A DNA stretch of 32,000 nucleotides from Candidatus Saccharimonadota bacterium (GCA_965231145.1 OZ246420.1:840001-872000); one strand, 5' to 3'. Shown: positions 1 to 32,000, counted from the first letter of the stretch. The notes: generated by a model from the sequence alone, not told the origin. A program made the numbers and translations.

Positions 1-34
1 ATATCTTAGTATATCTCCTGTCCTCTTTACTGAC

Positions 35-58
35 AAAAAAAGGCTCCCCTCTGGGAGC
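35..58 (-). terminator. Intrinsic terminator downstream of the Nudix/NrtR-like gene
   Basis: Stem GCTCCC (43-48) / GGGAGC (53-58) with a 4-nt loop. It is preceded on the + strand by an A7 run (35-41), which is a U-tract on the - strand. Confidence 0.5.
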
Positions 59-145
59 AATCGGCCGCAAAAAATATCGTTTTTTTGCTATTAATGATAT
101 AATGTTTGACTTTATGCTCTTTTTGTATGATATATTAGCGATGAT

Positions 146-814
146 TTATAATATTTGCTGCACTTCAAGCTCTTTATTGATGAACTCATAAAGCGAAGCG
201 GGTCTATGGGTAACCCCCACCTCTGTTTTGTCTGTTTGTCTGATCAAATGTAGACTTTGTATTTTCTTTCTAAAATTCCTCACATCTAGGCTTTGTCCAA
301 GGATGACCTCATAGACATTTTGCAGTTGCTTCAGTGAAAAATACTTTGGCAGAAAGTACTGTGCAGCATTTGTAGATTCAAGTTTTGATCTAAGTCTTTG
401 ATAAGCATATCTGATGATTTCCAGATGATCAAATGCAAGAGACGGAAGCTCTTTGATGGAAAAATACTGCGACTTTGTAGCATCGCTTCCTGCTGTCGTT
501 TTACTATGTATCTCATGACAGATAGCCATGTATGCTGTTGTGATCACTCTACCTCTGGGATCTCTATGAGGATTTGAAAATGTATAAAGTTGTTCCAGAT
601 AGACGTTTGTTACTCATGCTTCTTCACGAAGTCTTCTTCTCGCTGCTTTTTCCAGCGACTCATCTTCGAGCACAAACCCTCATGGCAGAGCCCGATAGCC
701 TTTATATGGAGCTCCTCCTCTTTCGATAAGAAGCAGCTGCAGCGTATTATCTGTAATCGTAAAGATCACATTATCCGTTGCCACTAAGATAGACTGGATA
801 ATTTTGTCTCCCAT
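146..814 (-). CDS. Nudix hydrolase domain fused to an NrtR-like winged-helix C-terminal domain (222 aa, table 25)
   Basis: ATG at 812-814, TAA at 146-148. The Nudix box reads LP-G-GFVLEDESLEKAARRRLREEA-G-V, with both marked glycines encoded by TGA (680-682 and 614-616). The C-terminal half (FSLKQLQNVYEVILGQSLDVRNFRKKI...HRPASLYEF) resembles the NrtR wHTH domain. The 133-aa track ORF 146..547 is only the 3' part. Confidence 0.8.
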
Positions 815-988
815 GAGGTATAATATACGATTTAAAAAGACCTTGATATTGTTTTGTTTACAATATCTAATCTCATATAAGATACAAGACTTATCTCATA
901 CTTATTGTATATATCACATTAAGAGCTTGAAAGCTTATTTTATCCGCATAGAGATAGGCATGCTTTTATCTTGATTACCACTTATACG

Positions 989-1552
989 ATGAACGGAAAT
1001 GAAGCACAGTTTAAAGAAATGATGTTAGATAAAGTTTTGTTTGGCGGACTATTGGCAACACACGATGAAGATATGACCGCATGAAAAAGACTCGAGATAC
1101 TCAACGGGGTAAAAGAAGATCTCTGTGATGCACTCACCGCCTTTACTCCCGATCTTCCGCATCAGTTTAGCTCTCAAGTAGAATCCATCGTAGGTAACAT
1201 AAGAGATCAGATAGAGATGATTTGGGATGACGACGAGTTCATGGGATTTATGGAACTCTATAAGATCAAGCTTGACGGCATCAATGCGATGATGGACCAA
1301 GGTCACAAAGAGTCGGGAGATATATGATCTGAAGAACAAGATGAGAAAGACAACTTTGATGAGCACACGAATATCAGAGCGAAGATGCTTAACTTCGAAG
1401 TAAACTTTACAAAGATATATGAAAAGATGAAAGAACGCGGCCTGGAAAGCATGAGTATGAACGGTCTCAAAATGTGGATAGGTATGTTCAAAAAATCAAA
1501 TGCTGAAAGAGTTGAATGGATGAAAAGATTTTCAGACGACAAAAGTGAATAG
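989..1552 (+). CDS. Hypothetical protein (187 aa, table 25)
   Basis: ATG 989 to TAG 1550-1552 with two in-frame TGAs and no TAA/TAG. The sequence is acidic and helical (MNGNEAQFKEMMLDKVLFGG...). I recognise no family. Confidence 0.55.
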
Positions 1553-1599: not shown

Positions 1600-2340
1600 A
1601 TGATTACTACTCTCAGAACATTTACACACCAAGAAGATCCATATGGTGTTCAGACAAGCTTGGAAAAATTTCTTAAAGAGAAAAATACGGCTGCTTTGGT
1701 AGAAGTTCTGATGGACCCCTATGAGATAGGTACACACGGGTCGACCACGAAGATGATCATGATGTCAGACTATGCAAGATGTACTCCCGAAGTACAGCAA
1801 GAATTACTGGAGACATTGAACTGATTCGATCTTGCATCATTGGAAACAACAGAAAAGGTAAGAGAGATGGTTTCATTTACTTATTTAGCCCTCTCACAAG
1901 ACAGGATGTGTAAAAAGATTAAGCTGATCGTACAAGTCCGAGATAAACGAGTAGATGATTTTCGTGCTGGAAAATTCAGTTCACTTCCACTGAGCGCACA
2001 GTGAGACATACTGATCAATTCCTCTCATGGTACTCGTCCTCTCTCTGAGGAAGAAATAGATGCACTTACAGAATTACAAGCACACGAGTACTGAAGATAT
2101 TGGTCTACTCTTATGTTTAAAACTAATCCATATAAAGCTATAGACTTTGTTGCAGCTCAAAATGATGGGAAAAGGCTTACACGCTTTGCCATCATAAATG
2201 GCATCAATCAACCAGGAACACAAATAGACTCTATCAACTATATTTTCGAGAAGTATGGCTATCTACTCTCTGATGAAAATAGAAATTCGCTCAACGAATG
2301 GCGCGAATTGACTGTAGAGAAAATAGAAAAGAAAGAATAA
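1600..2340 (+). CDS. Hypothetical protein (246 aa, table 25)
   Basis: Track ORFs 1600..1824 and 2113..2340 are in the same frame (513 nt apart). They are joined through three in-frame TGAs with no TAA/TAG, and the gene ends at TAA 2338-2340. Confidence 0.6.
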
Positions 2341-2492: not shown

Positions 2493-4391
2493 TTATTTCT
2501 CATCTGCATCGATAACCTCTCCTTGTGCCGCTCCTGCTCCAGTGCTTGGATCAATGATGTCTTCAGGATTTGGCTGATTTGCTGCGTTGTTCTGTGCACC
2601 AAATTTCTGGTACATCTTTGTGAACTCTGCTTCAAATTTTGCACATTCACTATCGATCTTTTCCTTAGTAGCATTTTCATCTTCCTTGATCGCTTTTGCT
2701 TCTGCTAACATCTTTGTGAGAAGTTCTTTTTCTTCTGCAGGAAGCTTGTCAGCATTATCTTTTTCCATAGTTTCCATCTGGTAGATAAGAGCTTCAAGCT
2801 TGTTTTTTGCTTCAACAACCTCTTTACGCTTCTTATCTTCTTCTGCGAATCTCTCCGCATCAGCTTGCGCCGCCTTGATCTCTTCATCAGAGATACCTGT
2901 TGCACCCTGGATCGTTACTTTCTGCTCCTTACCAGTTGTCTTTTCTTTCGCAGCAACATGAAGGATACCATTTGCATCGATATCAAATGTTACTTCGATC
3001 TGTGCCTGTCCTCTTTTCATCGGAGGAATACCATCAAGATTGAACTGACCAAGAGATTTATTATCTTTCGCAAACTGTCTTTCACCCTGAGTTACATGGA
3101 TCGTCACTGCTGGTTGATTGTCAGTTGCTGTGGTGTATGTGTTCGACTTCTTTGTCGGAATAGTTGTATTTCTTGGGATCATCACATGTGCGATACCACC
3201 TTCTACTTCTACTGCCAAACTCAATGGAGTAACATCGAGAAGAAGAATGTCTTTCACATCACCCTGGATGATACCTCCTTGAATCGCAGCACCCTGTGCA
3301 ACTGATTCGTCCGGATTAACAGTAGCCTTAGGCTCTTTTCCAAGAATATCTCCCACGAGTTTCTTGATCGCAGGGATACGAGTTGATCCACCCACAAGAA
3401 TGATTTCATTGATATCATCTTTACTGAGTTTACTATCTGCAAGCGCGCTCATCACTGGCTGCTTACAACGATCGATAAGATCTGCACACATCTTTTCAAA
3501 CTGTGCTTTTGTCAAAGTTTCCTGGATATGTTTCGGCTCACCCTCTACCGTAGTGATGAAAGGGATATTGATATCTACGCTATCAGTTTGTGAAAGTTGC
3601 TTCTTCGCATTTTCAGCCTCATCTTTGATACGCTGAAGAGCCATAGCATTTTTTGAAAGATCGATTCCGTTCTTTGCTTTAAATCCTGCAAGTAACCAAT
3701 CCATGATTCTCTGGTCGAAGTCAGCACCTCCAAGATGCGTGTCACCCGACGTTGAGAGAACCTGAAATGTTCCTTCAGAACCGATATCGAGAACGGTAAC
3801 GTCGAACGTTCCACCTCCGAGATCAAATACCACGATCTTTTCATCCTTGTTTCTATTTTCACCGTATGCGAGCGAAGCTGCTGTCGGTTCATTGATAATT
3901 CTTTCTACCTTAAGACCCGCGATCTCACCGGCAGCTTTCGTTGCATTACGCTGTGAGTCATTGAAGTATGCTGGTACTGTAATAACTGCTTGCGTGATTT
4001 TTTCACCAAGAAATTTTTCACAGTCTTCTTTGATCTTCTGGAGAATGAATGCAGAGATCTGCTCTGGCTTATACTCCTTTCCATCTACAACGATAAGCAC
4101 TCCCCCATCTGATCCTTCTTTGATCTCATATGGAACAGATTTATCCTGTGCAGTAAGCTCAGAAAACTTACGACCGATAAATCTTTTTACTTCGTAGATC
4201 ACATTTTTCGGTTCAAGCACTGCTTTGCGCTTTGCGAGATTTCCAACGAGAAGCTGATCTCCTTTGATATATACTGTTGATGGAGTTGTTCTTGCTCCCT
4301 CAGCATTTGAGATAACTTCTGACTTGTCATTGAGCAGGTATGCTGCACATGAGTTGGTTGTACCAAGGTCAATACCTATAACTTTTGCCAT
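2493..4391 (-). CDS. dnaK: Molecular chaperone DnaK (Hsp70), 632 aa
   Basis: Full-length Hsp70 hallmarks are present: GIDLGTTNS, DLGGGTFD, LVGGSTRIP and a C-terminal lid. The ORF is intact with no in-frame TGA. Confidence 0.98.
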   Translation of the reverse strand: MAKVIGIDLGTTNSCAAYLLNDKSEVISNAEGARTTPSTVYIKGDQLLVGNLAKRKAVLEPKNVIYEVKRFIGRKFSELTAQDKSVPYEIKEGSDGGVLIVVDGKEYKPEQISAFILQKIKEDCEKFLGEKITQAVITVPAYFNDSQRNATKAAGEIAGLKVERIINEPTAASLAYGENRNKDEKIVVFDLGGGTFDVTVLDIGSEGTFQVLSTSGDTHLGGADFDQRIMDWLLAGFKAKNGIDLSKNAMALQRIKDEAENAKKQLSQTDSVDINIPFITTVEGEPKHIQETLTKAQFEKMCADLIDRCKQPVMSALADSKLSKDDINEIILVGGSTRIPAIKKLVGDILGKEPKATVNPDESVAQGAAIQGGIIQGDVKDILLLDVTPLSLAVEVEGGIAHVMIPRNTTIPTKKSNTYTTATDNQPAVTIHVTQGERQFAKDNKSLGQFNLDGIPPMKRGQAQIEVTFDIDANGILHVAAKEKTTGKEQKVTIQGATGISDEEIKAAQADAERFAEEDKKRKEVVEAKNKLEALIYQMETMEKDNADKLPAEEKELLTKMLAEAKAIKEDENATKEKIDSECAKFEAEFTKMYQKFGAQNNAANQPNPEDIIDPSTGAGAAQGEVIDADEK

Positions 4392-5070: not shown

Positions 5071-5715
5071 TTACATAATCCTATAGCCAAATCATTTAAT
5101 CGTTTCTATCGCATCTTTCCCCAGCTTTTTTCTGAGATTTGCCACATAAACATCTAATGTCGAATCGTTCTCCCAGCTATCTCATCACCAGATGTAGTCT
5201 ATGAGATCAGTACGAGAGACTGCATGTCACATGCGCTGCGCAAGATATTCGAGCAAGAGAAATTCTTTGAGAGGAAGTTTGACCTCCTCTCCTGCTTTGA
5301 TGACGCGTTGCTCATCTATAAGCACTTCTATATCGTGCCAACGATACACGGTAGGGATCTCTGATCTTTTTAAGATAGCTTTGATACGCATAAGTAACTC
5401 CTCAAGTGCAAATGGTTTCACCAGGTAATCATCTGCTCATGCCTCAAATCATTCTCATTTATCTTCTAACTGCCCTTTCGCCGTCGTCACAATAATAGGC
5501 ACTTTTTTCTTTTCACGCACTGCTTTAATGATCTCCATGCCATCAGCATTGGGAAGCATCCGGTCAATAATGAGCAGCTCATAGGTCTGAGAAGTCGCCT
5601 TCTCTAATCCCTCTTTACCATCATGCACCATATCGACTTCAAATCACTCAAGCTCCAAATAGCGCTTAATATTGCGAGCAATTTGCACCTGATCTTCTAC
5701 CAACAATATTTTCAT
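5071..5715 (-). CDS. OmpR/PhoB-family response regulator (214 aa, table 25)
   Basis: The receiver domain (MKILLVEDQ..., IIDRMLP, PIIVTTAKG, ADDYLVKPF) is followed by a winged-helix domain (LEYLAQRMG, VYVANLRKKL, IKGFGYRIM). By my count, eight in-frame TGAs account for 8 of 15 glycines, including ELE-G-F, EA-G-ADDY, IW-GG-D and IK-G-FGY. Confidence 0.95.
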
Positions 5716-5717
5716 AG

Positions 5718-7010
5718 TTAGAAATCTTTAGAAAATAGAAAGATTACTTTTGTTCATTGTTCACCATTTTTCTCTACTCTTACTTTCCACCCGAGGACGT
5801 CTGATAGTTTCTGCACAATAGAAAGTCCGAGGCCCACTCCATCTTGGCGGTTTTTATCCGCCTGCCGGAACGGCTGTCGGATGTTTTCTCTGTGTTCGTC
5901 AGCGATACCAATCCCTGTGTCTGCAATGATGCACGATGTATCAGTCAGAGTAATAGATATATTTCCTCCTTCCGGAGTATATTTGTATGCATTATCTATA
6001 ATGTTTGAAAGAATGCTTTCTGCTGCGCCTTCGTGTGTAGTAATGAAAACAGGAGTAGCAATATCTTTCTGGATAATAATATCTTTGCCATCATATTTTT
6101 TCTCCATGTTTTGCAATGTTCTTTCCAGAAGTGTACTCATGTTTACCTCGGTCGTCGACATTTTTCCTGTCTGCGCCATAGTTAATACCAGTAGTCCATC
6201 GAGTAACGTTTGCATCTGCTGCACCGTCAGTGTATTTTTTTCTACCAGATCATCATACTCTTTCGTCTTCTTCGCAAGATCTATGTCTGAACGCATGACC
6301 ATAAGCGGTGTTTTAAACTCATGCGACACATGAGATACAAAGTCTTTTATCGATTGGACTTGATGATGTATTTTCTTTTTCATCGTATCGATCGCTCTTG
6401 CAACTATGTTAATCTCATCATCTTCGGGAAGATGGTCCATGGTAAGATCGGTATGCAGCGTATCGATGGTCGCACTTTTTACGCCATCGGAAAGCGTATA
6501 CAGATCTCTGAGACCACGCGACACCAATCGACGAGAAAGTCAGTAACTCAGGAAAATCATAATTGTCAGGATGACAACACTGAGCCACGCAAGATCTATT
6601 TGTCTCTGTGCATTCTCAGTAATATCGAGCAAGACAATTCTTCCGTCTCTTGCGTTGTACACCATATACCAGCGATTGTCATTTGCATGAATGATATCTA
6701 CTAACTTACGTGAATAGTTCACCACATTTTCCTGAGGTCATGCTGGATAGAATACCGTCGTAGTAATAGGTCTTGTTGGCACGCCATGCACTGCGATACC
6801 AATAGGCATGACAAAGCGTTTATTTGACTGCTGTAATGCTGCCTGGAATGCCTGCATGTTATTTTGTTGTATCGCCATAGAAGTCAGCTGATCGCGATCA
6901 TTGCCGTGCCAAATCAGGAAAAAACTGACATTGATACAAAGCAATATCAGAAATGTAGAAACTGCAGTGAAAACAGAGAACTGTAATGCGATGCGTGAAG
7001 AGGTCTTCAT
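5718..7010 (-). CDS. Sensor histidine kinase (430 aa, table 25)
   Basis: Track ORFs 5754..6527, 6540..6725 and 6738..7010 share one frame and join via TGAs at 6738 and 6540. The TGA at 5754 reads through (GEQ-G-TKVIFLFSKDF) to TAA 5718-5720. The protein has two TM segments, an H-box (SHVSHEFKTPL), an N-box (NIIDNAYKYT) and G-boxes (DTGIGI, GVGLGLSIV). It ends 3 nt before the regulator ATG. Confidence 0.9.
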
Positions 7011-7212: not shown

Positions 7213-7887
7213 TTAGTTTATTTTTTCGTTTTTGATCATTTTTACTTTCATCATCTTTTGTGGATTTTTCATGTTAGCAAATTCATCTTCTGTCATATCT
7301 GCAAACATAGGCATGTCTTTCGTTGCAGTCTTAAACGCCTCATAATCCTGAGATTCTATAGCATCATGGATAGCTTTCTGCGACGCGCGTTCTTTTACGA
7401 TGTTATCAAACTCTTCTCTCGTAGGAGTTGTCGCTTTTACATATGCGTCATAGTCATTGTTCTCAAGAGCTGTTTCTACAGCTGTATGCTTCTTTTGCAT
7501 CTCAACCATTTTAGTAAACTGCTCTTGTGTTGGCACAGTTGCATTTGAAGGTTTATTTTCATTAGCATTCCATGCAGCCACAAATGCACTGTAGTCATTA
7601 TTTTCTATAGCGGTCTTTGTTGCTTCATCGCCTCCAAAGAATCCAATGAATTTCCCAGCCATAGCAACACCTTGCTCACCGCGTCACATCATATGCATCA
7701 TGGCGGGTTTAGCAGCTCTGCTGAACATTACATTTTGGCCTCCTGATATCTGCATCGTTCTTGCAGTAAATGTAGGAGTTGCTGAGCTTACTGTTGTTGC
7801 TTCATTTGCGGATGCCATAGAGAGAGCACCAATAGTCAAAGCAGATCCAAGTCCGATACCCGCCAAGATAAGTGATTTGTTTTTCAT
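7213..7887 (-). CDS. Secreted protein with three internal helical repeats (224 aa, table 25)
   Basis: Track ORFs 7213..7662 and 7684..7923 share a frame and join at TGA 7684-7686. I place the start at MKNKSLILAGIGLGSALTIGALSMASA, which is signal-peptide-like. Three repeats are visible: AIENNDYSAFVAAW, ALENNDYDAYVKAT and AIESQDYEAFKTAT. Confidence 0.7.
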
Positions 7888-8055
7888 CTGAGATATATAC
7901 ATAAAGTATAAAAGCGTGTGCACACTATTCCACTAAATGGGAACGACGCTCTTATACGGACGAATATTAACTAAATCTTAATAATGTATAAAACGTAAGA
8001 CACAAGACACTTCTTTCCGCACTAACAAACTCAGCAGACTTTTGCGAGATGTATT

Positions 8056-8100: not shown

Positions 8101-8769
8101 TTATTTTCTCATATCAATACTGCTAGATGAATCTGACATGTCGGCATATTTATTTTTTTTATCAAACATAAGCTTAAGCAATTTCAATCTTATGATCAGA
8201 AATGCTTCAAACTCTGCTGTCTTAGTAGAATCAATATATGGCTGAACAGCTGTCTTATATGCTGCCACTGCAATTTCGGCTTGATTGTCCCACAATGTTT
8301 TTGGCATTGGAGTGCCTGCCTTTACGCCATCATCATAGGCTTTATTCATATTTTTTTGTGCTGCAAGAAAATCCTTTATCGCTTTTATGACTGCCTCTCC
8401 AAAAGCAAGCTTCTCCTCTCTTGTCGGCGTCTTAAGATAGCGAACAACATAACCATTTTCTTCACGATATGCTTTTACATCTTCAGCGTTTTGTTGTACT
8501 ATAGCCTTAATGACTGTTCCTGTCTTAACTACCTGGCCTGTTGTAGGAACAGGAAGTTTTATTCCGGTTGAAGTTTTCACATTTCCTGTCATAGCAGGAG
8601 CAGGTTTTTTCACTGGCACTACTGGACGCTTATCAAGAAGTTTTTTAAGTGCAGGACGAACAAGTGGTTTTGTCACAGTTTTTGTAGGCGCTACCGGAAG
8701 TGTTTGTGTCGCAAATGCAGCTCCTGTAAGAGCAAGTACGCTAACAGCGAGAATAAGGTATTTTTTCAT
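8101..8769 (-). CDS. Secreted hypothetical protein (222 aa)
   Basis: Intact ORF ending in TAA. It has an N-terminal signal peptide (MKKYLILAVSVLALTGAAFA) and a Pro/Lys/Thr/Val-rich linker. It contains no TGA. Confidence 0.8.
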   Translation of the reverse strand: MKKYLILAVSVLALTGAAFATQTLPVAPTKTVTKPLVRPALKKLLDKRPVVPVKKPAPAMTGNVKTSTGIKLPVPTTGQVVKTGTVIKAIVQQNAEDVKAYREENGYVVRYLKTPTREEKLAFGEAVIKAIKDFLAAQKNMNKAYDDGVKAGTPMPKTLWDNQAEIAVAAYKTAVQPYIDSTKTAEFEAFLIIRLKLLKLMFDKKNKYADMSDSSSSIDMRK

Positions 8770-17336: not shown

Positions 17337-17372
17337 TTTTTTATAAAGAAAAACCACCCGAAAGACGGGCAG
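17337..17372 (-). terminator. Intrinsic terminator after the lipoprotein gene
   Basis: On the - strand: CCCG-tcttt-CGGG followed by TGGTTTTTCTTTATAAAAAA. The 23-nt tail is identical to that of the terminator at 9283-9305. Confidence 0.5.
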
Positions 17373-17919: not shown

Positions 17920-18789
17920 CTATAAGCTTATAAGTGTATAGAGGCTTGCTCCGTTATTTTCGTATGTATACGCGAGGGCAAGGATGCCTTTTACATATTT
18001 CATACTAAAGGTTTTAGAGAAACCACTTCCCCATCGCACAATGGTGCTTGTCTTACGATCATAGCCAAAGTCTGTGAAAAGATAGACAGAACGTTTTCGA
18101 CTAATAAGCAGACTAGAGAAGTCTCCAATAGCATCAGTTTTCACAAATGCAGTATTGAAAAGACTTTTACCACTATATGTTATAGCACCACATGTGACAT
18201 TGGTTGCCGTCTGATAATAGCCGCTTAACTGTATACGACGAATCGTCGTAGTTACTTGGTACTCAGACATATTATCCCGCACAGATATACCAGCACCAAA
18301 GAGTGTTTTCGCATTGGGAATATACTTTAGATTGCAGGTATATCCAACGCCTGGTAAACGCGCCTGCGTCCAGGTTTCAAATTGCCCGTACTGAGATACG
18401 GGAAACGGACGATGCTGTTGAGCAACAAGAGTCGACCCCTTACCCGCTTCGATAGCAATTTTCTTCAATGGACGATACTGTAACCACATGGCATGAATAC
18501 CAAATGAGGATCCTGTTACGGCCTCATACTCTCCTACTGCAAAGGTCTTGAGCGTCAGTTTTGTACCCATATGCCACAGAGCAGAAGCCCCGAAGCGGAA
18601 TGAGGCAAATGCTGTGCTAGTGTCCTTACCACACAAATAGGCTGAGCCTGCTAACGTCCCGGCATACACTTTGTCTATAACGACAGTGCTGTCAGACGTG
18701 GCGGCAACGCCTGATATTTGTGCATATGATGTAACTGTAAATACTATCATGGTAATAACGCCTACCACTGCGATGATATGTTTTTTCAT
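17920..18789 (-). CDS. Secreted protein with porin-like beta-barrel sequence pattern (289 aa)
   Basis: Intact ORF ending in TAG. It has a signal peptide (MKKHIIAVVGVITMIVFTVTSYAQ). Many short alternating hydrophobic/polar strands follow (LTLKTFAVGEYEA, FGIHAMWLQY, GYTCNLKYI, IQLSGYYQ, VYLFTDFGYD, GILALAYTYE). By my count it has 26 glycines, none encoded by TGA. Confidence 0.75.
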   Translation of the reverse strand: MKKHIIAVVGVITMIVFTVTSYAQISGVAATSDSTVVIDKVYAGTLAGSAYLCGKDTSTAFASFRFGASALWHMGTKLTLKTFAVGEYEAVTGSSFGIHAMWLQYRPLKKIAIEAGKGSTLVAQQHRPFPVSQYGQFETWTQARLPGVGYTCNLKYIPNAKTLFGAGISVRDNMSEYQVTTTIRRIQLSGYYQTATNVTCGAITYSGKSLFNTAFVKTDAIGDFSSLLISRKRSVYLFTDFGYDRKTSTIVRWGSGFSKTFSMKYVKGILALAYTYENNGASLYTLISL

Positions 18790-18977: not shown

Positions 18978-19727
18978 ATGACTATGGAATCCTTGTTACT
19001 CACTCTCCAACAGTACTGACTTTCAGAGAAAGAAGCGAAAGTCTATCTCACTACCCTGCAGCTTGGCTCTGCACCTGGAAGTTCTATCGCCAGAAATAGT
19101 GGTGAAAATAGAGCAACAGTCTATACTGTGCTTAAAGAGCTTCAGAAGAAGTGAATCGCCAATGAAGTCAAGAAAGGTAATATGACCTATTTTTCCGTGA
19201 TAACGCCTGAGCTCCTGCTCAGGGAACTCGAAGATAAGTACACGAGCTTTAAGGAGAAGCTTCCGGAATTTCTTGTGCTAGCTGAGAAATTTGGAAATAA
19301 ACCAAAGGTACAGTTTTTTGAAGGCATCGAAGGCGTAAAAAAAATGTATGAAGATTTGCTTACATCAAAAACAGAAATCTTATCGTTTCTTGGAATCGAA
19401 CATAGCAATAAAGAACTGATTCACTATCTGAGCAGAGATTTTCTTGTTCGTCGTATTAAAAGTGACATCCACGCAAAGGTGATCCTGTCGGATACACCGG
19501 CAAACCAAAGATACGCCGGTATCGATGAAAAAGCGAAGAAACAATCGATCCTTATCCAAAAGAACTGATTCACTCTTGAGTGAGAGATAAATATCTACTG
19601 ACCAAACAAGATCAGCATAGCGCTTATGAATGACCATGAGATGTCTGGTCTTATCATCTCCAGCGAACAGCTGTATAACACATGTAAAAATATTTTTGAT
19701 TTAGTCTGGTCTCAAAATAACAAGTAG
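18978..19727 (+). CDS. TrmB-family HTH transcriptional regulator (249 aa, table 25)
   Basis: The N-terminus reads LLTLQQY-G-LSEKEAKVYLTTLQLGSAPGSSIARNSGENRATVYTVLKELQKK-G-IANEV, the TrmB-type wHTH pattern. TGA supplies the two marked glycines (the first at 19017-19019). There are five in-frame TGAs, and the gene ends at TAG 19725-19727. Confidence 0.85.
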
Positions 19728-19729: not shown

Positions 19730-22624
19730 ATGAGTAAAAATATGCCATTGTCGGCATGAGTTAGCCACAATAGAGAGTCAACCAAAGTTGATAAGATTTG
19801 AACGTATCTTGATCAGTTATTTGACCCTCAGCAAGAACCAAATGGAATTTTCCTCTATGATTGGGAAAATTCACATACCGGAGAAAGCGGTGCTGCCCTT
19901 TTTTCACATGTTGCACACTCCCCTGCATATAAAGCGTTTACGGACAAAGAAGTTGAACTATTTATACTCAATAAACATGCTATCATTGCTGCCTTCACTC
20001 ATAAGAACGTAAATAATATCGTCGACATGGGACCAGGTAATGGACACAAGAGTGCAAAAGTATTAGGAGAGACTCTCTGAGAAAAGCTTCAGGGAAAGAC
20101 CTATATCCCTGTTGATATCAGTCCTTACTTCACTCAGCATGCGTCTCATGAAGTACAGCATCATTTACATTCAACATACCATAGCACTCGCATAAAATCT
20201 GCAGGATTAGCGATAAATTTTCTTGAATCGAATGCTGCGCTGAAGGACTTAAAAGATAAGATGTATTTTTTTCTTGGATGAAGTATCTGAAACTTTTCTG
20301 ACGAACAGATAGTACAAATCCTTAAAAATATGGCATCCGATGGTGGCAAAAAAAACAATATCATTTTCTCATATTTCACCGCTCCCGATAAAAATGCTGA
20401 AGATTATGAACAACAAATTCAAAAGATGTCCGCAACCTATGGCGATCCTGATCATCATAATCCGTACTACGACCAAGAAACTCACGACGCTATCAAAGCA
20501 TGGATCATGGGATGATTTGATTCTCTTGGTATCGACACAAGCAAACTAGAATTTTTCGTTCGTTACGATGAAGCACATACCAAAATAGTACTCTGAGCCA
20601 AGATAAAGGAAGATATCACCGTGAAGCACCATGGAAAGCTTTATGCAAAAGAAGCATGAGATGAACTTTTGGCAATCCAATCAAAAAGATTTACACGTAG
20701 TAAAATATACAACCTTGCCGATCTGGCTAAGACAAAAGTGAAACAGATCGATGATCATGCGTGAATAGGCATGAGTATCATGGAATCAGATCGGACACCT
20801 GAGGCGAAAGAAAGAAGAGAAAACAAAAAGAAATGGTGAATAAGAGGCGCTATTGCAACCACCTTACTAGCCGGAGCTATTAAGTGAGGCATGGTGTATG
20901 AAAAGACTAAACAAGATAAAAACATGAAAGAGAATCTTGAGAATGTTTTACACAATAAGCTTGAACCCAAGCAGTACAACAGCGGTTATTACACAAATCT
21001 TAATGACGAGGCAAAGAGAAACTTATTTACTAAAAAAGCTCACGAGTTCTTTGAGGTTTTATACGAAAGATATGATCTAAGTGATTTTTCTGAAGCAAAA
21101 CAAGAGTTTATAAAAACTCTTCTATTTCAATGGTTAATAAACCAAAACGAATCAACTATCAATATTACAACTATTTCAGCATGACAGTGAATTGCATGAT
21201 ATCCAAATCACACGTATGAAAAGACATCTGAGCTTATAGAAGTATTTATAGATGAAAATAGTTATACGCTTACTGCAAATGATGTAACATTACATTTGCA
21301 TAGCAAACTTGCTTCACAAGAAAAAGCATTAAAAAACACACTAGAAAGCAAAGAGAACTTTTCTATTCGTCAGCGAAGCACATCTGCACAAGCCCGCTCT
21401 GTAAACAGCACCAGACAAAATTATGATTGGATCTGACCCTATACGACATCAAATGGAGAAAGCTATCTTGTAGGGAAATGCAAAAAGTGAGACAAAGAGT
21501 ACATAGTAGCGTGTTCTTTCTATATCCCCTGAGAAACACATGAAGAAAAACAAAAACGGGTGAAATCCTATAAAGATGGCACACTATCAACTAATTATAA
21601 CAATATAAACCTCACGACAAATAATACAAATATCTATGAAGATCTCACTATTGAAAATGGCAAGATAATTGCTGAGGACTACTACAAGAAACCTTATTTC
21701 AATAAGCTAGCAGAAAAAGTTGTTGCGACTCTTAAAAAAGATCCGCAAGCAAGTCAGTATGATATTGCAATTATTATCTCACATATGACATATAGTTCAA
21801 AAGAGTGATATGACTTTTCATGGTTAATAAATACCAAAAATAATAAAGACATCTCCGTCTTCGCTCATACCTATTTATCCCAGTTTTTCACTGCTACTAG
21901 TTCAGAATTTGATAAATCCACAGCTATACATAATATTTTTGATGTGGCGGTGAATAAATATATGACGTCTATAAAAGATAATGTATACAATGATGCTAAA
22001 GGGAAGGGCAAGCTAGAAAGTGCCATCTTCCATAGACTGTGCAGCAAGGAATTGCGTATCCAGTCTAGTATATCTATTCAGAAATGGATAAATGAGAATG
22101 AAGATATTTTTACTCCTCGAATACCGAAGAACACGTATCCTCGTATAAATCCGGAGAAAGCATCTATTCTCGACAAAGTAACGCTGTATAAAAAACAAGA
22201 TGCTGAAGATATTAAACACGATCCAGGACTCGTAAATATGAACATTTATCTGTACGAAGATCTTGAAGGAAATCAGTATGAAATAGGACTCTATAAAGGC
22301 GATCTCTACGCACGCTATATTATACCAGATTTAGAAAAATTCTATCTTGGAACAACACCTACATACATAAAACACTTAAGAGATAATATAATTGCATGAT
22401 GCAAGAAAGAATGACTAGGAGTATTTAGTCCTGAAGTTATGGAGAGAAAAAAAACGTTTCATAAAACATCATCTGAATGATTTATAGCACAAGGTGATGA
22501 GATGTATATTAAAAGCATTACCGACAAGTTATTCGCTCATAACACTGAAATAGGAAATATAGTACTCCAAGACTACTGGAAAAGAAAGAAATACTCAGTT
22601 GGCGATGGTATTGCTCCGCATTAG
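19730..22624 (+). CDS. EgtD-like SAM-dependent methyltransferase (Methyltransf_33-type) fused to a ~630-aa region of unknown function (964 aa, table 25)
   Basis: Track ORFs 20330, 20891, 21560 and 21944 share one frame. I read 19730 to TAG 22622-22624 with about 21 TGAs and no TAA/TAG. The N-terminal ~330 aa carry IVDMGPGNGHKS, YIPVDIS, FFLG-G-SI-G-NF (both marked glycines are TGA) and AIQSKRFT. A hydrophobic segment (IRGAIATTLLAGAIKGG) follows, then unassignable sequence. The start is 2 nt after the TrmB-like stop. Confidence 0.7.
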
Positions 22625-22695: not shown

Positions 22696-25600
22696 TTATT
22701 TTTTGACCTTCCCCTGCTCCAAGTACACCACCTCATCCGCAAATTTCAGCAGTGTCTTATCATGTTCTATCATGAGAATAGTGTCTCATTTGTCGAGAAA
22801 CTGCTTGAGGACGAGGAGCAGTTTCTCGATATCCGAAGGATGAAGACCAACCGTTGGTTCATCGAGGAAGTAGATGGTATGTCACTTGTATTGTTTCAGA
22901 AGATGTTTGACAAGTTTGATACGTTGTGATTCACCACCAGAAAGTGTATGCGCTGGCTGCCCCATTCTGAGGTACCCAAGACCAATGTCTACCATAAGTT
23001 TGAGTTCATCCGCGATGAAGCCGATATCTTTGAATAGTTCATACGCTTGATACACATACATTTCTAGTATGTCGGCGATATTGTTTCCATGCCAATAGAT
23101 CGACAGGATCTCTGACTTGTAACGTTTTCCATGACAGAGTTCACATGGCACATAAGTATCAGGAAGGAACTGAAGCTCCACTTTCTTATAACCATATCCT
23201 TCACATGCAGGACAGGCACCCTTCGACGAGTTGAACGAGAAATGCCCAGCCTGGAAGCCCATAAATTTCGCCTGGTCTGTTCCGGCGAAAATCTTACGGA
23301 TGTTGTCGAATGTTCCGATAAACGTTCCCGGACAGCTACGTGGCGTCTTACCAATACTACTCTGATCAACGTAAAGTACATTTTCTACTTTCTCATGACC
23401 AGTCACTGTTTCCACTCCTATCGTGCTATAGAACTCCTGCAATGCGAGATTTTCCAAGTGCTCATACTCTTCACGCTTCATCACAGGTGACGCAACGATC
23501 TCACTTCGTGAGAGTCCTTTTTTCAAAAGTTGTAATCTGATATATCCTTGAACAAACTTTGTTTTCTCTTCAAAAAACTTAAACAATGTCTCAAACATAA
23601 GCGTGGTCTTACCAGCACCCGATGGTCCAGTCACGATAGTAAAGCCTCCGAGACGGAAGTTTACATCGATGTTTTGCAGATTATTCTGCGATGCTTTTTT
23701 CACCTTAATCCATTTGTCATCTGCTTTATGTTCAAACTCTACATGTATTGCTTTCTTTCATGTGATGTAATCAGCAGTGAGTGTTCATGACTTGAGAAAT
23801 TTTTCATACGGTCCTGAGAACAAAAGATGTCCTCCAAAATCTCCCGAGCCAGGTCAGATCTCCACGATCCAGTCAGATGCTTTGATAAACGCTTCATTAT
23901 GTTCTACGACGACGATCGTATTTCCCATGTCTTTCAGCGATTTAATCGCTGCAATCGTACGTTCAATCTCACGATCATCGAGTCCGATCGTCGGCTCATC
24001 GAGTACATAAATAATTCCCGTGAGTTTATTACCGAGTTGCTTCGCGAGCCTTAAACGCTGAATCTCTCCTCCGGACAATGTATCTATCTGTCTGTGCAGA
24101 TTGAGATGGCCGAGTCAGAGATTTGCGATAGTATTAATTCTATCGAGGAGAGGCGTTAAAATACGCCCGACGAGCACATCTGGCTTATCGGTCGTCTCTC
24201 TATAGAGCTGCAGTCTCTCGATCAGATCAGTGATCGTCATCCTTTGCAGATCATAGATCGTAAACATCTCCTCTGCATTTTCTTCGAAAATATTTGTTGG
24301 TTGCTTACCTGGCTTCCCCATATAGAGAAATACGTACATCGACTCTTTACGAAGTTTACTTCCATGACACTCCGGACAGAGCTGCATGTGAAACATCGCC
24401 TGAAAGTCGACGCTCAGTACTCACTTATTATATTGCGATGTAAGCACATCTTGTATACCGTTATAGTTCATACTCACATATTTCCCTCCCATTCAGAGAC
24501 GCAACAACTCTCCATCACCATCTATTACCACCTGCTGAAACCACTGCGGAAGCTTTGGCCATGGAAGGTCTTCATCGATAGAATATTTTTGTGCGAGCTT
24601 CTTCAAAATAGTTTGGCCAAGTACACTATCTTTCCATGGGATCACTGCTTTTGAAAGCACAGCTGTCGTATCGATGATACGATCCATATCTACTTGGAGT
24701 ATCTCACCCAGTCCATGACAGTGCTGACATGCACCCTCTGCTCTATTTGGTGAAAAATGCTGAGTGGTAAACTCAGGATATGAAATATCATAGTCTGGAT
24801 CATAGTTTTTATCAGTGAACCAGCGAATACTATTTGACACGGTAAACACCTCTTTATCAAGTTTTTTTGAAATATCCGTGTCGTCCTCTTGCTTTGCTTC
24901 AAGCGCTTCATAGATACCAAACTTTTTAGTAAGCGACAAAATCTTGATGATATCATCTTTCAAACGCCCAAGTTTCGCCTCCTCTATCGTCACACGGTCG
25001 AAGATACCATAGACCTGCACAGGAAAAAACTTTTCTGGAATATGCGGAGATTCAAGATAGAAATATTCGATCACGCTTGCATCAGCTACCGAATCCATGG
25101 CTTGATGCTTATGTTCTTCACGCACCTGCGCAACAATATTTACATTACTATTCAATGTTGCTAGTCACGAGTCGCTAGTCACTTTGCCTTTTTTTCATTT
25201 TTCTTTCTCTTCTTTTTCATCGGACGCAACATGTTGCGTCCCTACATTATTAGTATTATTGTTCATCAGCAATAGGTATCTCGTGAAACCCTCACCATTT
25301 TCTACCTTGAGACGGTTCTTTTTCACAAACTTCAAGAAACTCATCTCATCTTCAAATTTTCCTGCTTCTTGCACAAGATAGACTTTTTTACCATTGTATC
25401 TTTGCTTAATATCATCAACGATCTGATCAATGCTCTGTGGCTTGATCATTTTTCCTGAACCGTATGAGTAGATATCTCCGAGCTTCGCATACATGAGACG
25501 AAGGTAATCATCGATCTCGGTCAGCGTACCAACGGTCGAACGCGCGTTACCCACACGCTTGTTTTGCTCGATCGCAATAGCTGGTGAAAGGCCTTCTGTG

Positions 25601-26010
25601 TAGTCAATATCAGGCCTTTCTCATAAATTGAAAAACTGCCTCAAGTACGACGAAAGAGACTCGATATAACGATATTGTCCTTCTTTATAAATCGTATCGA
25701 ATGCGAACGAAGATTTTCCTGATCCTGATACACCGACTACTGAAATAATATTATTTTTCGGTATCGTCACATCGATATCGCGAAGATTGTGTGTCTTCAC
25801 GCCGCGGAAGACGATCTTGTCACCTGTAGGCGCATGCACTTCTGAAGTGATATGCTGTCCTGCAGCTACGACATCATCGACCTTTATGACCTCTGATTTT
25901 TTCGACTTTGCTGCTGTCTTACCAGCGATAGATTTAGCTGCTGCAGCTGGTTTCTTTTTTCCTGATCATGCTAATCTATCTGATATCTTTGGAGTGCGTG
26001 CCATGCTCAT
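22696..26010 (-). CDS. uvrA: Excinuclease ABC subunit A (1,104 aa, table 25)
   Basis: Six track fragments (22882..23703, 23854..24078, 24115..24396, 24493..25155, 25195..25554, 25621..25839) share one frame. My codon scan found about 12 TGAs and no TAA/TAG. Motifs present: Walker [10 protein letters not shown] and GPSGAGKTT, zinc modules [25 protein letters not shown] and CELCHGKRY, signature LSGGE, and [15 protein letters not shown] (TGA at 23851-23853). ATG at 26008-26010 (or 26002-26004), TAA at 22696-22698. Confidence 0.92.
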
Positions 26011-26920: not shown

Positions 26921-27892
26921 TTATCCCGCAAAGTTAAGCATGGTAAGTACATCAATCTCATCGCTTTCCCATTGTCTTTGGAAAGTATGGAGATCACTAG
27001 TATGATGAAGCGGCACGATAAAGCCGTTGGTGTGCTTCTTATACTGTTGGTTAAATCTCTCGAGAAAATATTTATTGGAGATAAGCGAAGAAACAATGAG
27101 TAAGTCCTGCCCCGGCACCATGAACTCTTTCATCCAGCGCATAAGCGTTTCGACAAAGAAGTCTACCGACTGGATGACCAGATTTTTCGCGAACTCATTG
27201 AGTTCGATCTCTTCCGATGTTTTGAAAAAATATGGAAGCACATTGTTTTCCTTGTAAATATCTTTCAGCATACGAACTCCCAGATTAATCTTTTCGCATC
27301 TCGTGTATTTTCCGTGATTGAGTGTAATAACTTTTGCATACTCATCGAAAAGATACAGTATTTGTAACTGTGGCTTATGAAGAGTCTTTTTAAGATACCC
27401 AACTGTATAAAAACTCTGTGGATAGATTTTGATCTTCGGGGTATCGCGACCGAAGGTCGCTTTTATGAGATTGTATGTACGCTTTTGAATGAAGACGAAC
27501 GTGAGTGTTGCATGTATTGTTCAGAGTTCTCCAAGGATATATGGTTTTTCCTGCCCATTAACGTTGATGTTATCGATAAGATAGAAAAGTTTTTCGCCAC
27601 CCGCTTTATAGTGTTCTTTGATGTAACCAAGCCTTTCATTGACGATGTTTTGGATATCCCTGACGCTGATCTTTTCAGTAGAACAAAAATCAAGATCAAC
27701 GGTATAGAGATCAAATTGATCTTCATCCAGAAGCAAAACGATAGTTTCTTTCTTCTCGTGAAAACTATAGGCGTCACGAAGCATCTCCTTCATCTCACCC
27801 GTTTTATGTGATGTCTGAAATTTACCTCCATGCTTGTGGAAATATCTGTATCATCACTTATCCTCGCTTCGTCTTTCTACAAAAATATGCAT
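26921..27892 (-). CDS. Divergent actin-fold (FtsA/PilM-like) protein (up to 323 aa, table 25)
   Basis: Track ORFs 26921..27271 and 27521..27793 share a frame and join through TGA. The segment order resembles FtsA: IDNINVNGQEKPYILGEL-G-TIHATLTFVFI, then KIYPQSFYTVGYL, then ILYLFDEYAKVITLNHGKYTRCEKINLGVRMLKDIY. The start is either 27892 or 27793. Confidence 0.45.
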
Positions 27893-28155: not shown

Positions 28156-28181
28156 TTTTATGTCTGTAAGTATATAAGTCG

Positions 28182-29282
28182 ATGAATAGCATGTTTCCCT
28201 ATATATGATCTGCGATCTTATGTTTCATGGTAGCTGTTTTTGGTATAGAGGTATTTACCAAGCGAAAGATCCTCGACAAGCCGGGTCCTGATGTACCAGA
28301 TCGCAAAGGAGTACCAAATATGCAAGGCATCTTCCTCATCCTTGGATTTGTTGGATCAATGCTCATTTTCTTTCCGGAGTATCTGCACCAGAAACAGTTT
28401 CTTGGACTTCTCTTTGGTGGACTTCTGATCGGAGTGGTTGAAACCATCGACACTCTCATAGGCTTGAACTATACAGGACTGAAGACAAAAGGATTAAATA
28501 AGAAAATAAGAGTGATCGTGCAAATCATCGTCGCCATGATCGCCATGTTTGTCGGCGGCATCAACATCGATACATTTATGATAGGCAATCTTACTATTAC
28601 ACTTCCGTTTATCATTGCAGCTATCATCCTCATCGTCTGGTTTGGCGGTTTCATGAATGCCATCAATCGGATTGACGGGATCAATAGTCTTTCAAGCGGT
28701 GTTTCAACGATCGGTTTTCTTACTATCTATCTCCTCTTGCAACAAGTCGTCTTTCCTTCTTATCCAGGCATGAGTCCAGACAATGCAATCACCCTGTCGA
28801 TGATTACCAATATCGCATTTGTGATGACCATCCTCGGAATCATCTATACCACCATTGAATATAAACCAATGGGAAGACTCAGAGACATAGGAACCATGTT
28901 TCTTGGCTTTACTCTCGCATATCTTGCCCTGCTCGGCGGCGCAAAGATTGGAACGATCCTCGTAGCACTTTCATTGCCTATCTTCGACGCTATCTGGGTG
29001 TTTATCAACAGGATATTTATCATGAAAAAGTCTCCTCTGAAAGGCGACTATACACATATTCATTATAGACTACTCGCGCTTGGGCGAAATCGTCATGAAA
29101 TCCGCTGGTTCGTCCGAGGACGATCGCTGTTCTTCATGACTATTATCCTCCTCCAGTGAACAGACAGAACAGCAAAAATCATCATCTTCGTCATGATGGC
29201 CCTCATCTTCTTCGGCGTGAATATCTACTTGTTCTGGGTAAAGAAGATGCCGATGGAATACCGCATTGAAAATAAAAAATAA
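28182..29282 (+). CDS. MraY/WecA-family polyprenyl-phosphate sugar-phosphate transferase (366 aa, table 25)
   Basis: Polytopic membrane protein with ILDKPGPDVPDRKGVPNMQG and the family motif NAINRIDGINSLSSG. The TGA at 29157-29159 reads through to TAA 29280-29282, adding a final TM helix. An upstream in-frame TGA (28206) allows a start at 28182, which adds the expected first TM helix. Confidence 0.85.
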
Positions 29283-29338
29283 GAAACCATAAATAAAAGA
29301 TATTTCTTATCTCTTAGCTCTTATTTTTTATTTGTTTT

Positions 29339-31657
29339 ATGCAACTCCTCGCAACCACCTATCAAAATATTTGACCGTTTTTAGGCCGTACGATTACGGT
29401 GGTTTTTCAGAAAGGGAAATATTTGATCAAAGCGCCAATAGGAAGTGGAAAATCATTTATGTTTTTCGATGGGCCGGTATTTGGCTTGTACAAGTATAGT
29501 TGACGCACCATGCTCAGCATGAAAGCTGAGGAAGGTTATATCAAAGCTCTTTTTGAAGTCGGCGGAAATTACTATCTTGTTGTCAGAGCGCTTACTCGTA
29601 CAAAATCAGGTTGAGATGGAGTGAAGTCAAAACTCTTCACATTAGAAAATATTCCTACAGATCTATGACTGAAAGATGTCATAAATGAATCTGCAGATAT
29701 AGAAAATATTCTCCGTGATCAGTGAGTAGCTCTCGAAGAAGTTATCTTCAAAAATGAGACTGATTTGCAACAGAACTTAGCCGATTTTCTGCCACCAAGA
29801 GAAGTGTTTACCAGCACGACATTTCTCATGCAGGACAGTGAGAACATGTTCGAGATGACTGCAGCAGATAGGATCAATGTCTTCAAGAATATTTTTTGAC
29901 TCCTCGATATCGACGAAGCAAAAGAACTCATTGCAAATGAGAAAAAAGATGTCTCTGCAACCATTAAATCGAGAAAAAACACTGATGACGTCAACGCAAA
30001 GCTCCAGCGTGGAGTTAACGAATATATTACTATTGTGACGAACAATAAAGATGCAGCATCTGATGCTATCATTTCTCATGCAGAAGATTGGTCTATGGTG
30101 CAAGATAAGCTTGGCACAGAAAACTTTGATATTGCATCGCTTCCGCTTAGCTCATGGCAGACATTGCATGAACAATATGACAAAAAAAGAGCTGAGTACC
30201 AAGCGAGCATGGGTGAACGTAAGGCGCTAGAAACACAACAACTACAGACTTCTCAGGAAATTGAGAAGTTGAAAGAGCAAAGAGCAAAGAGCAAAATTAT
30301 GATTGAGAATCTCGAGAACAAGCTAAATACTGACAATAGTACTATCATCAAAGATTTTGTGATCAAAAAGCAGGACCTGCTTGCTCAGCAGGAGCTTATT
30401 ACTCATGAACTACCGCTAGAAGCACTTGGTCTCAGCAATGTCTACGAACTCAATACATATATCATCGAGCTGGTTCAAAAAGGAAAAGATCTCGCAAGCA
30501 AGAAAGAACAAAGCAAGCAAAAATTAGACTATCTCGAAAACGATCTTAAGAAGATCGATGAACGTAAAAACGGTATTGCGCAGCAATTAGCTATTGTAGA
30601 TGAGTCGCGCTCAAAACAACAGTTTTTCTGTACAAAGATTGAAGACAACTGTCCATTTTTGGAGCAGATAAACCAAGGAATGTTTAAACGTCTCGATGAA
30701 CAAAAGTCTCTTTTAGAAAAAGAGTTAGCATGACTCGATAAAGAAAAAATAGAGGCCGAACGCATCAAAGCAACCAAGGAATTAGAAGATGCAAAGGACG
30801 CCTATGATCGTGCCATTGAAGAGTATAAAAAATATGATTTCAAGAAAATAAAAGAACAGATAGATGAATATAGCAAGCTTGATAGAGAACGCGGTGAAGT
30901 CGATAAGAAAATAACCGTGCTTGATAAAGAAAAAGAATTACAGGAGGGTTATAGGACCGAGATCATACAGCTGCAGTCTCAGATAAAAAGCAATGAAGAA
31001 AGCATGAGCACCTTGAATACTCACTTAGTAAAGCTTGATACGCAGCTCAAGAAATTGCAAGAGACAACAAACATTAATGAGCTCGACAAAGTAGAAGCAA
31101 TGCTCTCCTCTATCGCGAGAGCGACGAAGATCCTTGAGTGAATAAAAGATCTCGTCGAGACACATAAGAATAATATGCTTCTCATTAAGCAGCTCGAAGA
31201 GAGAGAAGCGATGCTTGGACAGCTCTATACGATCTTTAGTAAAGAGATCATGATCCATGTACTGCAGCAAACGCTGCCACTTTTTGCCGATGTGTTGAAT
31301 AATTTATTAGCGAAGGTAGTAGAGTATACTGTCAGCTTTGAGACAAAAAATACCGGAGAGAAATTAGAGCTCGAGATTAAGGTACATGATGCCAAGGGAG
31401 AAAGACTCGTGAAATCACTTTCGGGAGGACAAAAAACTATCCTCAGGCTCACATGGACGCTTGCTATCTGTATTTTCACTCGCAGCAATGCGCTCTTCCT
31501 CGACGAAACGATTAATAATATCGACAAAGAAACCATAGGAAAAGTCGCTGACCTTATCGATGATTTCACGAAAACACACGATATTATGTTCTATATTATC
31601 ACACACTCAGAGACTATTCAGGAGATGGAGATTTGGGATAAGGTGATTAGTCTTTAA
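29339..31657 (+). CDS. SbcC/Rad50-family coiled-coil ATPase (772 aa, table 25)
   Basis: Track ORFs 30035, 30917 and 31175 plus the untracked 5' part share one frame. I translated 29339-30035 and found only TGAs. Motifs present: Walker A APIGSGKSFMFFDG, FKNIF-G-LL, a long heptad-rich middle, signature SLSGGQKT, Walker B LFLDE and D-loop ITHS. It ends at TAA 31655-31657. Confidence 0.85.
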
Positions 31658-32000
31658 AGCAAATTATTCGGCTGAAGAAATTTTTCTTTCATAGCAACAT
31701 TCAACTGGGAATAAAGATGTTTAATTTCTTTTTCATGGTTAAATTTCTTCCAATCTTCAAAAATAAGTCCTGTTGTCATAGTCAGATGTCGTAGTTTATA
31801 GTTTCACTGAGGCAGAGATCACATATTTTCGCTATATTGTTTCATGGTCTCATCTTTACGAACATTATGACTCACTCACCTATCCAACAATTTATAAAGA
31901 TGTTGTTCAAAAGCCTTGTAGACTTCCGCTCCTGTTTTTTGTGATAAAAAGTCTTCTTTTATACCATTTATAGTGACAAATCCTTTTCTCGAGTGCGATG
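31654..32000 (-). CDS. Hypothetical protein, 3' part only (runs off the window)
   Basis: The open frame from the window edge to TAA 31654-31656 contains three in-frame TGAs. The C-terminus is ...GLIFEDWKKFNHEKEIKHLYSQLNVAMKEKFLQPNNLL. I recognise no family. Confidence 0.45.

Follow-up and report, generated by a model that had tools for sequence, protein, structure and literature searches.

Evidence that UGA encodes glycine and CGA and CGG encode tryptophan in a 32-kb stretch of bacterial DNA

Background

This work concerns the genetic code of a 32,000-nucleotide stretch of DNA from Candidatus Saccharimonadota bacterium (GCA_965231145.1, OZ246420.1:840001-872000), which is referred to below, at its full length of 32 kb and with a GC content of 40%, as the window. 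An earlier interpretation made from the nucleotides alone (the sequence-only reading) had proposed that UGA is a glycine codon throughout, that the window needs NCBI translation table 25, and that tryptophan is encoded by TGG wherever it had looked. Here we report the genes of the window together with reading-frame statistics, alignments to solved protein structures and codon-level comparisons with orthologues and internal repeats. We consider it highly probable that UGA specifies glycine and both CGA and CGG specify tryptophan, that only UAA and UAG act as stops, and that the DNA derives from a UGA-recoding member of the Patescibacteria, class JAEDAM01, most likely of the order Absconditabacterales/SR1.

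The code that applies is not new: it is the one already predicted by computation for the Absconditabacteria (PMC8629427). The reading of UGA as glycine in table 25 is credited, in later sources, to Campbell 2013 and Rinke 2013. The Codetta survey of Shulgina and Eddy (2021, eLife, PMC8629427) predicted for Absconditabacteria both UGA to glycine and CGA and CGG to tryptophan, and describes in these bacteria a tRNA(GCG) for CGU and CGC together with a tRNA(UCG) and a tRNA(CCG) for CGA and CGG, tRNA(ACG) being absent. The same paper still calls the CGA/CGG change a prediction requiring experimental confirmation and raises the possibility of ambiguity, with CGG inferred as '?' or arginine in some Absconditabacterales genomes. 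The CGA/CGG reassignment is listed again as known in papers of 2026.

Results

Gene content and reading frames

The features of the window are collected in Table 1. When TGA is read through, open reading frames (ORFs) of at least 100 aa delimited by TAA or TAG sum to 21,725 aa, the longest having 2,617 aa; under the standard code, stop-to-stop ORFs of the same minimum length sum to 8,443 aa, the longest having 634 aa. Dropping TAG or TAA as a stop instead of TGA brings a much smaller gain. A greedy choice of non-overlapping ORFs gives 54 ORFs with a median of 98 aa and a window coverage of 64% under table 11, and 24 ORFs with a median of 243 aa and a coverage of 92% with TGA as sense.

Our main gene set comprises 17 genes, one frame each, covering 86% of the window and 9,192 codons. 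In frame these genes contain 153 TGA codons, spread over 14 of the 17, and no TAA or TAG, in agreement with the sequence-only reading, which had described genes broken at TGA alone, in a single frame. Each out-of-frame register of the same set holds 231-356 TGA, 145-255 TAA and 123-188 TAG. Thirteen genes terminate in TAA, four in TAG and none in TGA; the sample is small, and with a TGA share of 20% among stops this absence would have P = 0.02. Once TGA is counted as glycine, the glycine content of the set rises from 6.3% to 7.9% and TGA represents 21% of glycine codons.

Table 1. Features of the window and related copies, with strand, supporting annotation and codons of interest
Feature	Position	Strand	Annotation and in-frame codons
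NrtR/AraR-like Nudix and winged-helix regulator	146..814	-	Pfam NUDIX and NrtR_WHD; TGA 680-682, 614-616; CGG 692-694
Hypothetical gene	989..1552	+	TGA-read-through ORF with 2 in-frame TGA, TAG end; no Pfam match
Hypothetical gene	1603..2340	+	3 in-frame TGA; CGA 1939-1941, 1948-1950; no Pfam match
DnaK	2493..4391	-	HSP70 Pfam annotation on identical 2.9-kb Logan contig; no TGA, no CGA/CGG
OmpR-family response regulator	5071..5715	-	8 TGA: 5644-5646, 5455-5457, 5449-5451, 5437-5439, 5227-5229, 5185-5187, 5182-5184, 5092-5094; CGG 5560-5562
Histidine kinase	5718..7010	-	Pfam HisKA and HATPase_c; TGA 6738-6740, 6540-6542, 5754-5756; CGA 6528-6530, 5877-5879; CGG 5865-5867
Hypothetical secreted protein	7213..7902	-	1 TGA (7684-7686); no Pfam match
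Lipoprotein-like hypothetical gene	8101..8769	-	no TGA
Small membrane protein, 98 aa	8935..9231	+	CGA/CGG in Trp-like contexts KPG-w-AIN and DTW-w-RFF; absent from the sequence-only reading
Giant surface protein, ~2,590 aa	9337..17112	-	Pfam: two Laminin_G_3 + FN3 modules, central region, FN3 array; 82 TGA; CGA 15862-15864, 15364-15366, 15292-15294
Hypothetical lipoprotein	17341..17820	-	TGA 17398-17400, 17386-17388, 17380-17382; CGG 17566-17568; CGA 17410-17412; no Pfam match
Lineage-specific secreted beta-rich protein	17920..18789	-	TGA 0/26 Gly codons; no AGA/AGG; CGA/CGG at 18277-18279, 18097-18099, 18034-18036
TrmB-family regulator	18978..19727	+	Pfam TrmB; 5 TGA including 19017-19019
EgtD-like Methyltransf_33 domain with long C-terminal extension	19730..22624	+	Pfam Methyltransf_33; 21 TGA including 20279-20281, 20288-20290; CGG 20792-20794, 21557-21559; CGA 21374-21376, 22118-22120
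UvrA	22696..26010	-	12 TGA: 25966-25968, 25621-25623, 25195-25197, 25165-25167, 24493-24495, 24421-24423, 24115-24117, 23854-23856, 23785-23787, 23758-23760, 22882-22884, 22786-22788; CGA 23506-23508
Hypothetical gene, conserved in relatives	26921..27892	-	3 TGA within gene; CGA 27869-27871
Glycosyl transferase family 4 (GT4) membrane protein	28182..29282	+	Pfam Glycos_transf_4; TGA 28206-28208, 29157-29159; CGA 28263-28265, 29085-29087, 29115-29117, 29121-29123; CGG 28668-28670
SMC_N/SbcC-like ATPase	29339..31657	+	Pfam SMC_N below cut-off; 8 TGA
TrmB/Methyltransf_33 copies in relatives	L003 18209-18949, 22205-22960; L004 12319-13062, 15812-16549		

UGA occupies glycine positions

Proteins of the window, with TGA masked as X, were aligned to solved structures from standard-code organisms in the PDB. 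Of 20 TGA sites that could be so aligned, 13 face glycine in most of the homologues and none faces tryptophan (binomial P = 2.5e-10 for 13 of 20 against a glycine background of 8%). In the Nudix regulator, the TGA at 680-682 corresponds to G/G/G and that at 614-616 to G/A/G in 5bs6, 3gz5 and 2fml. Five of the eight sites in the response regulator are glycine in at least two of the three structures 1kgs, 2oqr and 8jo2, including those in the GADDY and the C-terminal G-x-GY motifs. Five of the nine alignable sites in UvrA are glycine in both 2r6f and 3pih, none being tryptophan, and these include the neighbourhood of the ABC signature and the D-loop/H-loop regions; the C-terminal TGA of the histidine kinase (5754-5756) is glycine in 6paj, the sole alignment reaching that site. 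PDB sequence searches with the GT4 protein, the EgtD-like N-terminus and TrmB returned nothing usable, and the sites in these proteins were therefore assessed on orthologues, plus library representatives in the case of GT4.

For the codon-level comparison, codons were threaded through protein alignments with four relatives (contigs L002-L005, from samples ERR3428547, SRR32417865, ERR12084922 and SRR31724218, whose UvrA is 82-89% identical to that of the window), so that the outcome is independent of any translation table used for database proteins. The 133 codons aligned with TGA sites of the window comprise 58 GGN, 48 TGA and 27 others (Ala, Asp, Glu, Lys, Asn, Ser and others), with no TGG, and the same usage of TGA is found in four independent assemblies. 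The TGA at 19017-19019 in trmB is matched by GGT, GGT and TGA. Of the two TGA codons in the EgtD-like motif FLG-TGA-S-I-TGA-NF, the first is TGA in all and the second is GGA in L002, L004 and L005. The TGA sites of the conserved hypothetical gene at 26921-27892 pair with GGN or TGA, and those of the SMC_N/SbcC-like ATPase pair mostly with TGA or GGN and in some cases with Ala, Asn or other codons.

A further comparison lies within the window itself. The giant surface protein contains an FN3 array of 11 near-identical 90-codon repeats, in register and free of indels, at ~11100-14070, which extends the adjacent repeats 270 nt apart to which the sequence-only reading had drawn attention. The array holds 35 TGA codons in 13 columns, and their column-mates are GGN in 74 cases, other codons in 34 and TGG in none.

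These results strongly support UGA as glycine and exclude its reading as tryptophan, as a mark of pseudogenes or as selenocysteine. The glycine assignment of the sequence-only reading is thus upheld by ORF statistics, PDB alignments, orthologue codons and FN3 repeats alike, and the positions it had cited are exact for 680-682, 614-616, 5754-5756, 19017-19019, 11392-11394 (GGA) and 11662-11664 (TGA); the TGA of the UvrA motif EI-X-PGSG, which it had placed at 23851-23853, lies one codon away at 23854-23856. It was also right that the UGA reassignment, being that of table 25, is not novel.

CGA and CGG occupy tryptophan positions

The window and its relatives were compared in every pairwise combination, and the 12,004 pairs of non-identical codons whose flanks are conserved were compiled into a partner table covering all 64 codons. 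Only TGA, CGA and CGG deviate from the standard code in this table, and all other codons keep their standard meaning. The partners of TGA are glycine in 79% of cases, as compared with 85-90% for the GGN codons. In conserved context the non-identical partners of CGA are TGG in 51 of 52 cases (98% Trp) and those of CGG, with fewer sites, in 23 of 25 (92% Trp). CGT, CGC, AGA and AGG remain arginine codons; CGT and CGC essentially never pair with CGA or CGG, though third-position synonymous changes (GGT-GGA, for example) are abundant in every other box.

Individual genes give the same picture. The CGG of the Nudix regulator (692-694), within the GxWxLPGG box, is W/W/W in 5bs6, 3gz5 and 2fml. In the histidine kinase, CGA 5877-5879 corresponds to F/F/F/G/F and CGG 5865-5867 to F/F/Y/Y/Y in PDB homologues, that is, to the F and the F/Y of the HATPase motif 'iFerFyr', and CGG 5560-5562 of the response regulator faces I/L/L, not R, in 1kgs, 2oqr and 8jo2. 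The giant surface protein carries an internal duplication of its Laminin_G_3 and FN3 modules (126 of 283 aligned residues identical), and each of its three CGA codons, at 15862-15864, 15364-15366 and 15292-15294, faces a TGG in the duplicate copy (16792-16794, 16282-16284 and 16210-16212, respectively). Among orthologues, the CGA of uvrA (23506-23508) is TGG in all four relatives, the column reading W in 67 and R in 53 of the 120 closest homologues; CGA 21374-21376 and CGG 21557-21559 of the EgtD-like gene are TGG in L004; and CGA 27869-27871 of the gene at 26921-27892 is matched by TGG, CGA, TGG and CAG.

Each of the five CGA/CGG codons of the GT4 protein is TGG in two or three of the four relatives and CGA or CGG in the others. 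The query for the library search was the part encoded by 28209-29156, which is free of TGA, and R was entered at the CGA/CGG positions; this biased it against the tryptophan reading, which still emerged from the 130 representatives aligned, 103 of them more distant. In these 103 the five columns hold mainly L/W/F, W/F, L/F/W, Y and I/L/V, arginine not being among the six commonest residues listed, and the column of CGG 28668-28670 holds W in 49 and F in 42. One GT4 column that is tryptophan in 100 of the 103 distant members reads W in 18 and R in 9 of the close lineage in database translations, and in UvrA seven columns hold W or R and nothing else across the 120 closest homologues; such R residues in close GT4 and UvrA relatives represent CGA or CGG translated with the wrong table.

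The main gene set contains 16 CGA, 8 CGG and 61 TGG codons (18, 9 and 70 per 10,000 codons, respectively), and with the hypothetical genes the CGA/CGG total comes to ~26. The remark that tryptophan was TGG wherever examined does not hold more generally, these ~26 codons likewise occupying tryptophan positions. Table 25, which the sequence-only reading had called for, is right as to UGA and the two stops and wrong as to CGA and CGG; it is necessary but insufficient, because it keeps them as arginine. UGA relative to GGN, and CGA and CGG relative to UGG, behave as synonyms in orthologues, in paralogues within the window and against standard-code homologues. All three are minority codons, CGA and CGG together making up ~28% of tryptophan codons and TGA 21% of those for glycine. 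DnaK has no TGA among 47 glycine codons (P = 1.6e-5 given a TGA share of 21%) and neither CGA nor CGG, and the secreted beta-rich protein (17920-18789) has no TGA among the 94 glycine codons of all four orthologues, those of the window and three relatives (P = 2.5e-10). A chaperone and a surface protein, the latter probably abundant, thus seem to disfavour the reassigned codons. Horizontal acquisition of the TGA-free gene for the secreted protein was considered and rejected, this gene being syntenic and equally free of TGA in three relatives.

Counter-evidence and alternative readings of the code

Several observations weigh against the code and lineage proposed here. As regards UGA, seven of the 20 PDB-alignable sites are non-glycine in standard-code homologues, mostly at variable columns; the TGA at 25621-25623 in UvrA faces M or L in PDB homologues, yet is G/TGA throughout the lineage; and the TGA at 5455-5457 in the response regulator, just before G-x-x-x-GADDY, falls where 1kgs, 2oqr and 8jo2 share a conserved hydrophobic residue (V/V/I) and would be an atypical glycine. 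No tRNA gene was found by ARAGORN in the window or in five related loci (L001-L005). As regards lineage, UvrA sequences of the window's clade are only 61-64% identical to those of named Absconditabacterales/SR1 and form a separate group, the named ones being 68-86% identical to each other, so that placement at the level of the order is not proven; and the GC content of the window, 0.40, exceeds the 0.26-0.38 quoted for reassigned clades in PMC8629427. As regards CGA and CGG, the egtD CGG at 20792-20794 faces CGA, AGA and AAA in relatives and looks synonymous under arginine decoding. The same appearance is given by the CGA/CGG codons at 18277-18279, 18097-18099 and 18034-18036 of the secreted beta-rich protein (17920-18789), which align with CGC, CGT, AAG, AGC and GCA in relatives, not with TGG, and which form the only cluster of exceptions to the tryptophan rule.

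These exceptions bear on the possibility, which we regard as unlikely, that CGA and CGG are ambiguous or gene-dependent, mostly tryptophan with residual arginine. The reassignment would then be unfinished: the gene at 17920-18789 would keep CGA/CGG at ancestral arginine sites, conserved genes would use them for tryptophan, and highly expressed genes would avoid both UGA and CGA/CGG. In keeping with this, L004, the closest relative, has the same CGA at one of the arginine-like sites of the gene, the codon there being CGT in L005 and CGC in L002, and PMC8629427 gives '?' or arginine for CGG in some Absconditabacterales genomes. Against ambiguous decoding, arginine partners of CGA and CGG are not seen in conserved contexts, and the exceptional gene diverges rapidly (38-55% identity, as compared with 82-89% for UvrA), encodes arginine almost only by CGT and CGC, and is variable at the three sites, which also hold S, A and K. 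Because its arginine codons are so rich in CGT and CGC, a CGY to CGR change is the easiest mutational route to a real arginine-to-tryptophan replacement, and such replacements most likely account for the exceptions in this gene. If the reassignment were indeed unfinished, the window would show a bacterial sense codon midway through its change of meaning, in a clade that is separate from the SR1 genomes described so far and has a higher GC content.

It is very improbable that table 25 suffices, with CGA and CGG as ordinary arginine codons. The three codons of the secreted protein, with CGC, CGT or AAG in relatives, the egtD CGG opposite AGA and AAA, and the use of table 25 in NCBI annotation of the lineage are all in line with it. 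The near-exclusive TGG partners of CGA and CGG, the scarcity of CGT/CGC pairs where GGT-GGA pairs abound, the three TGG counterparts within the giant protein, the Nudix CGG on a tryptophan of three solved homologues, and the hydrophobic or aromatic GT4 columns of distant homologues all contradict it.

A tryptophan UGA, as in table 4 of Mycoplasmatales and several endosymbionts, has practically no chance of being correct. It would agree with the public protein collection that we searched, where conserved glycine columns read W in 113, and tryptophan columns R in 115, of the 120 closest UvrA homologues, but the W residues indicate only that the genes were called in the style of table 4, for NCBI-named entries, which are translated with table 25, carry G at the same UvrA columns. 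In those named entries the glycines are corrected and the tryptophans are not. The codon-partner counts refute this reading, with TGA-TGG pairs in none of 133 orthologue comparisons, none in the repeat array and no tryptophan at the PDB sites. Proteins of the lineage are systematically mistranslated in the collection.

A standard code overlaid with pseudogenes, sequencing errors, selenocysteine or programmed read-through is just as remote, having in its favour the raw presence of in-frame TGA and nothing further, whereas the frames stay intact over 9,192 codons without TAA or TAG, the pattern is shared by four independent assemblies, and TGA faces glycine, not cysteine or selenocysteine, the latter being ruled out because TGA makes up 1.7% of codons and rejected as well on account of 153 TGA in 14 of 17 genes in alignment with glycine.

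Other features of the locus

The giant surface protein, absent from the syntenic regions examined in L002-L005, has in addition a central region without Pfam match, an FN3 domain resembling Pur_ac_phosph_N and a C-terminal part rich in cysteine. The membrane protein at 8935-9231 is rich in tryptophan when CGA and CGG are so read. In the C-terminal tail of the lipoprotein (17380-17412), three TGA within seven codons and a CGA (...EY-w-GGF-g-CII-g-I-g-NK...) form an unusually dense group; the end of this gene is uncertain. The pair of TrmB and EgtD-like Methyltransf_33 genes is single in the window (18978-22624) and doubled in L003 and L004. The ~900 bp between uvrA and the next gene (26011-26920) contain neither a tRNA nor an Rfam match and lack a convincing ORF whichever of the two codes is applied; the corresponding gap measures ~365-625 bp in relatives.

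Discussion

The closest named UvrA homologues of the window belong to Candidatus Absconditabacterales, Absconditicoccaceae and candidate division SR1; one sequence labelled 'Gracilibacteria' is 81% identical to an Absconditicoccaceae sequence. The code of the window resembles that of the Absconditabacteria in having all three reassignments and no other deviating codon, with CGU, CGC, AGA and AGG as arginine, and the frequencies of CGA (18) and TGG (70) per 10,000 codons compare with the 18-37 and 58-76 given in PMC8629427, CGG being somewhat higher in the window. It differs from Absconditabacterales rows of that source in GC content (0.40 against 0.31-0.33), and AGA is less dominant among the arginine codons of the window. 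With NCBI translation table 25 (Candidate Division SR1 and Gracilibacteria code) the window shares UGA as glycine and UAA and UAG as the only stops; it differs in that table 25 puts arginine at ~26 of its tryptophan positions.

Order BD1-5 ('Gracilibacteria'), of the same class, likewise has UGA as glycine, but PMC8629427 gives its CGA as arginine or uninferred and its CGG as tryptophan, arginine or uninferred, whereas both are tryptophan in the window. CGA is tryptophan in Absconditabacterales and not in BD1-5, so the pattern found in the window is that of Absconditabacterales. Table 4 (Mycoplasmatales, Hodgkinia, Zinderia and others) has in common with the window a UGA sense codon in a small, AT-leaning genome, with loss of release factor 2 described in the literature, but there UGA means tryptophan and here glycine. 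Finally, the changes of CGG to tryptophan in Anaerococcus and RFN20 Bacilli and to glutamine in Peptacetobacter, as described in PMC8629427, also affect an arginine codon of the CGN box in low-GC lineages. In these cases CGG alone has changed, CGA remaining arginine through tRNA(ICG), while in the window both have changed, as is expected where tRNA(UCG) reads both.

As to mechanism, the literature on the lineage, rather than this genome, suggests that release factor 2 would have been lost and UGA would be read by a tRNA(UCA) with glycine identity (G1:C72, C2:G71, G3:C70, U73). By the same token, tRNA(UCG) and tRNA(CCG) with tryptophan identity, marked by G73 and the lack of A20, rather than arginine identity would read CGA and CGG, and CGU and CGC would stay arginine through tRNA(GCG), as would AGA and AGG. 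An Rfam scan of the window at gathering thresholds matched no family. Scanning GTDB genomes for tRNA(UCA)-Gly with a pattern so strict that it leaves out most of the lineage gave 17 matches, of which those in three metagenome-assembled genomes (L012, L018 and L019) are real tRNA(UCA) genes with the acceptor-stem identity of glycine, G1-C2-G3...C70-G71-C72-U73; these come from other organisms and serve as illustration only. The flanks of the L012 tRNA contain no TGA-dependent ORFs and do not discriminate the code.

The value of these results is practical rather than conceptual, for every protein predicted from the window hinges on the code chosen. Table 11 shatters the genes and table 4 puts tryptophan at 153 glycine positions, while table 25, the official choice, puts arginine at ~26 of roughly 90 tryptophan codons, among them the tryptophan of the Nudix box and several residues of the GT4 membrane segments. 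At the same time, alignments of the window lend independent support to a predicted reassignment of sense codons, and they do so for a clade that the named SR1 genomes do not include.

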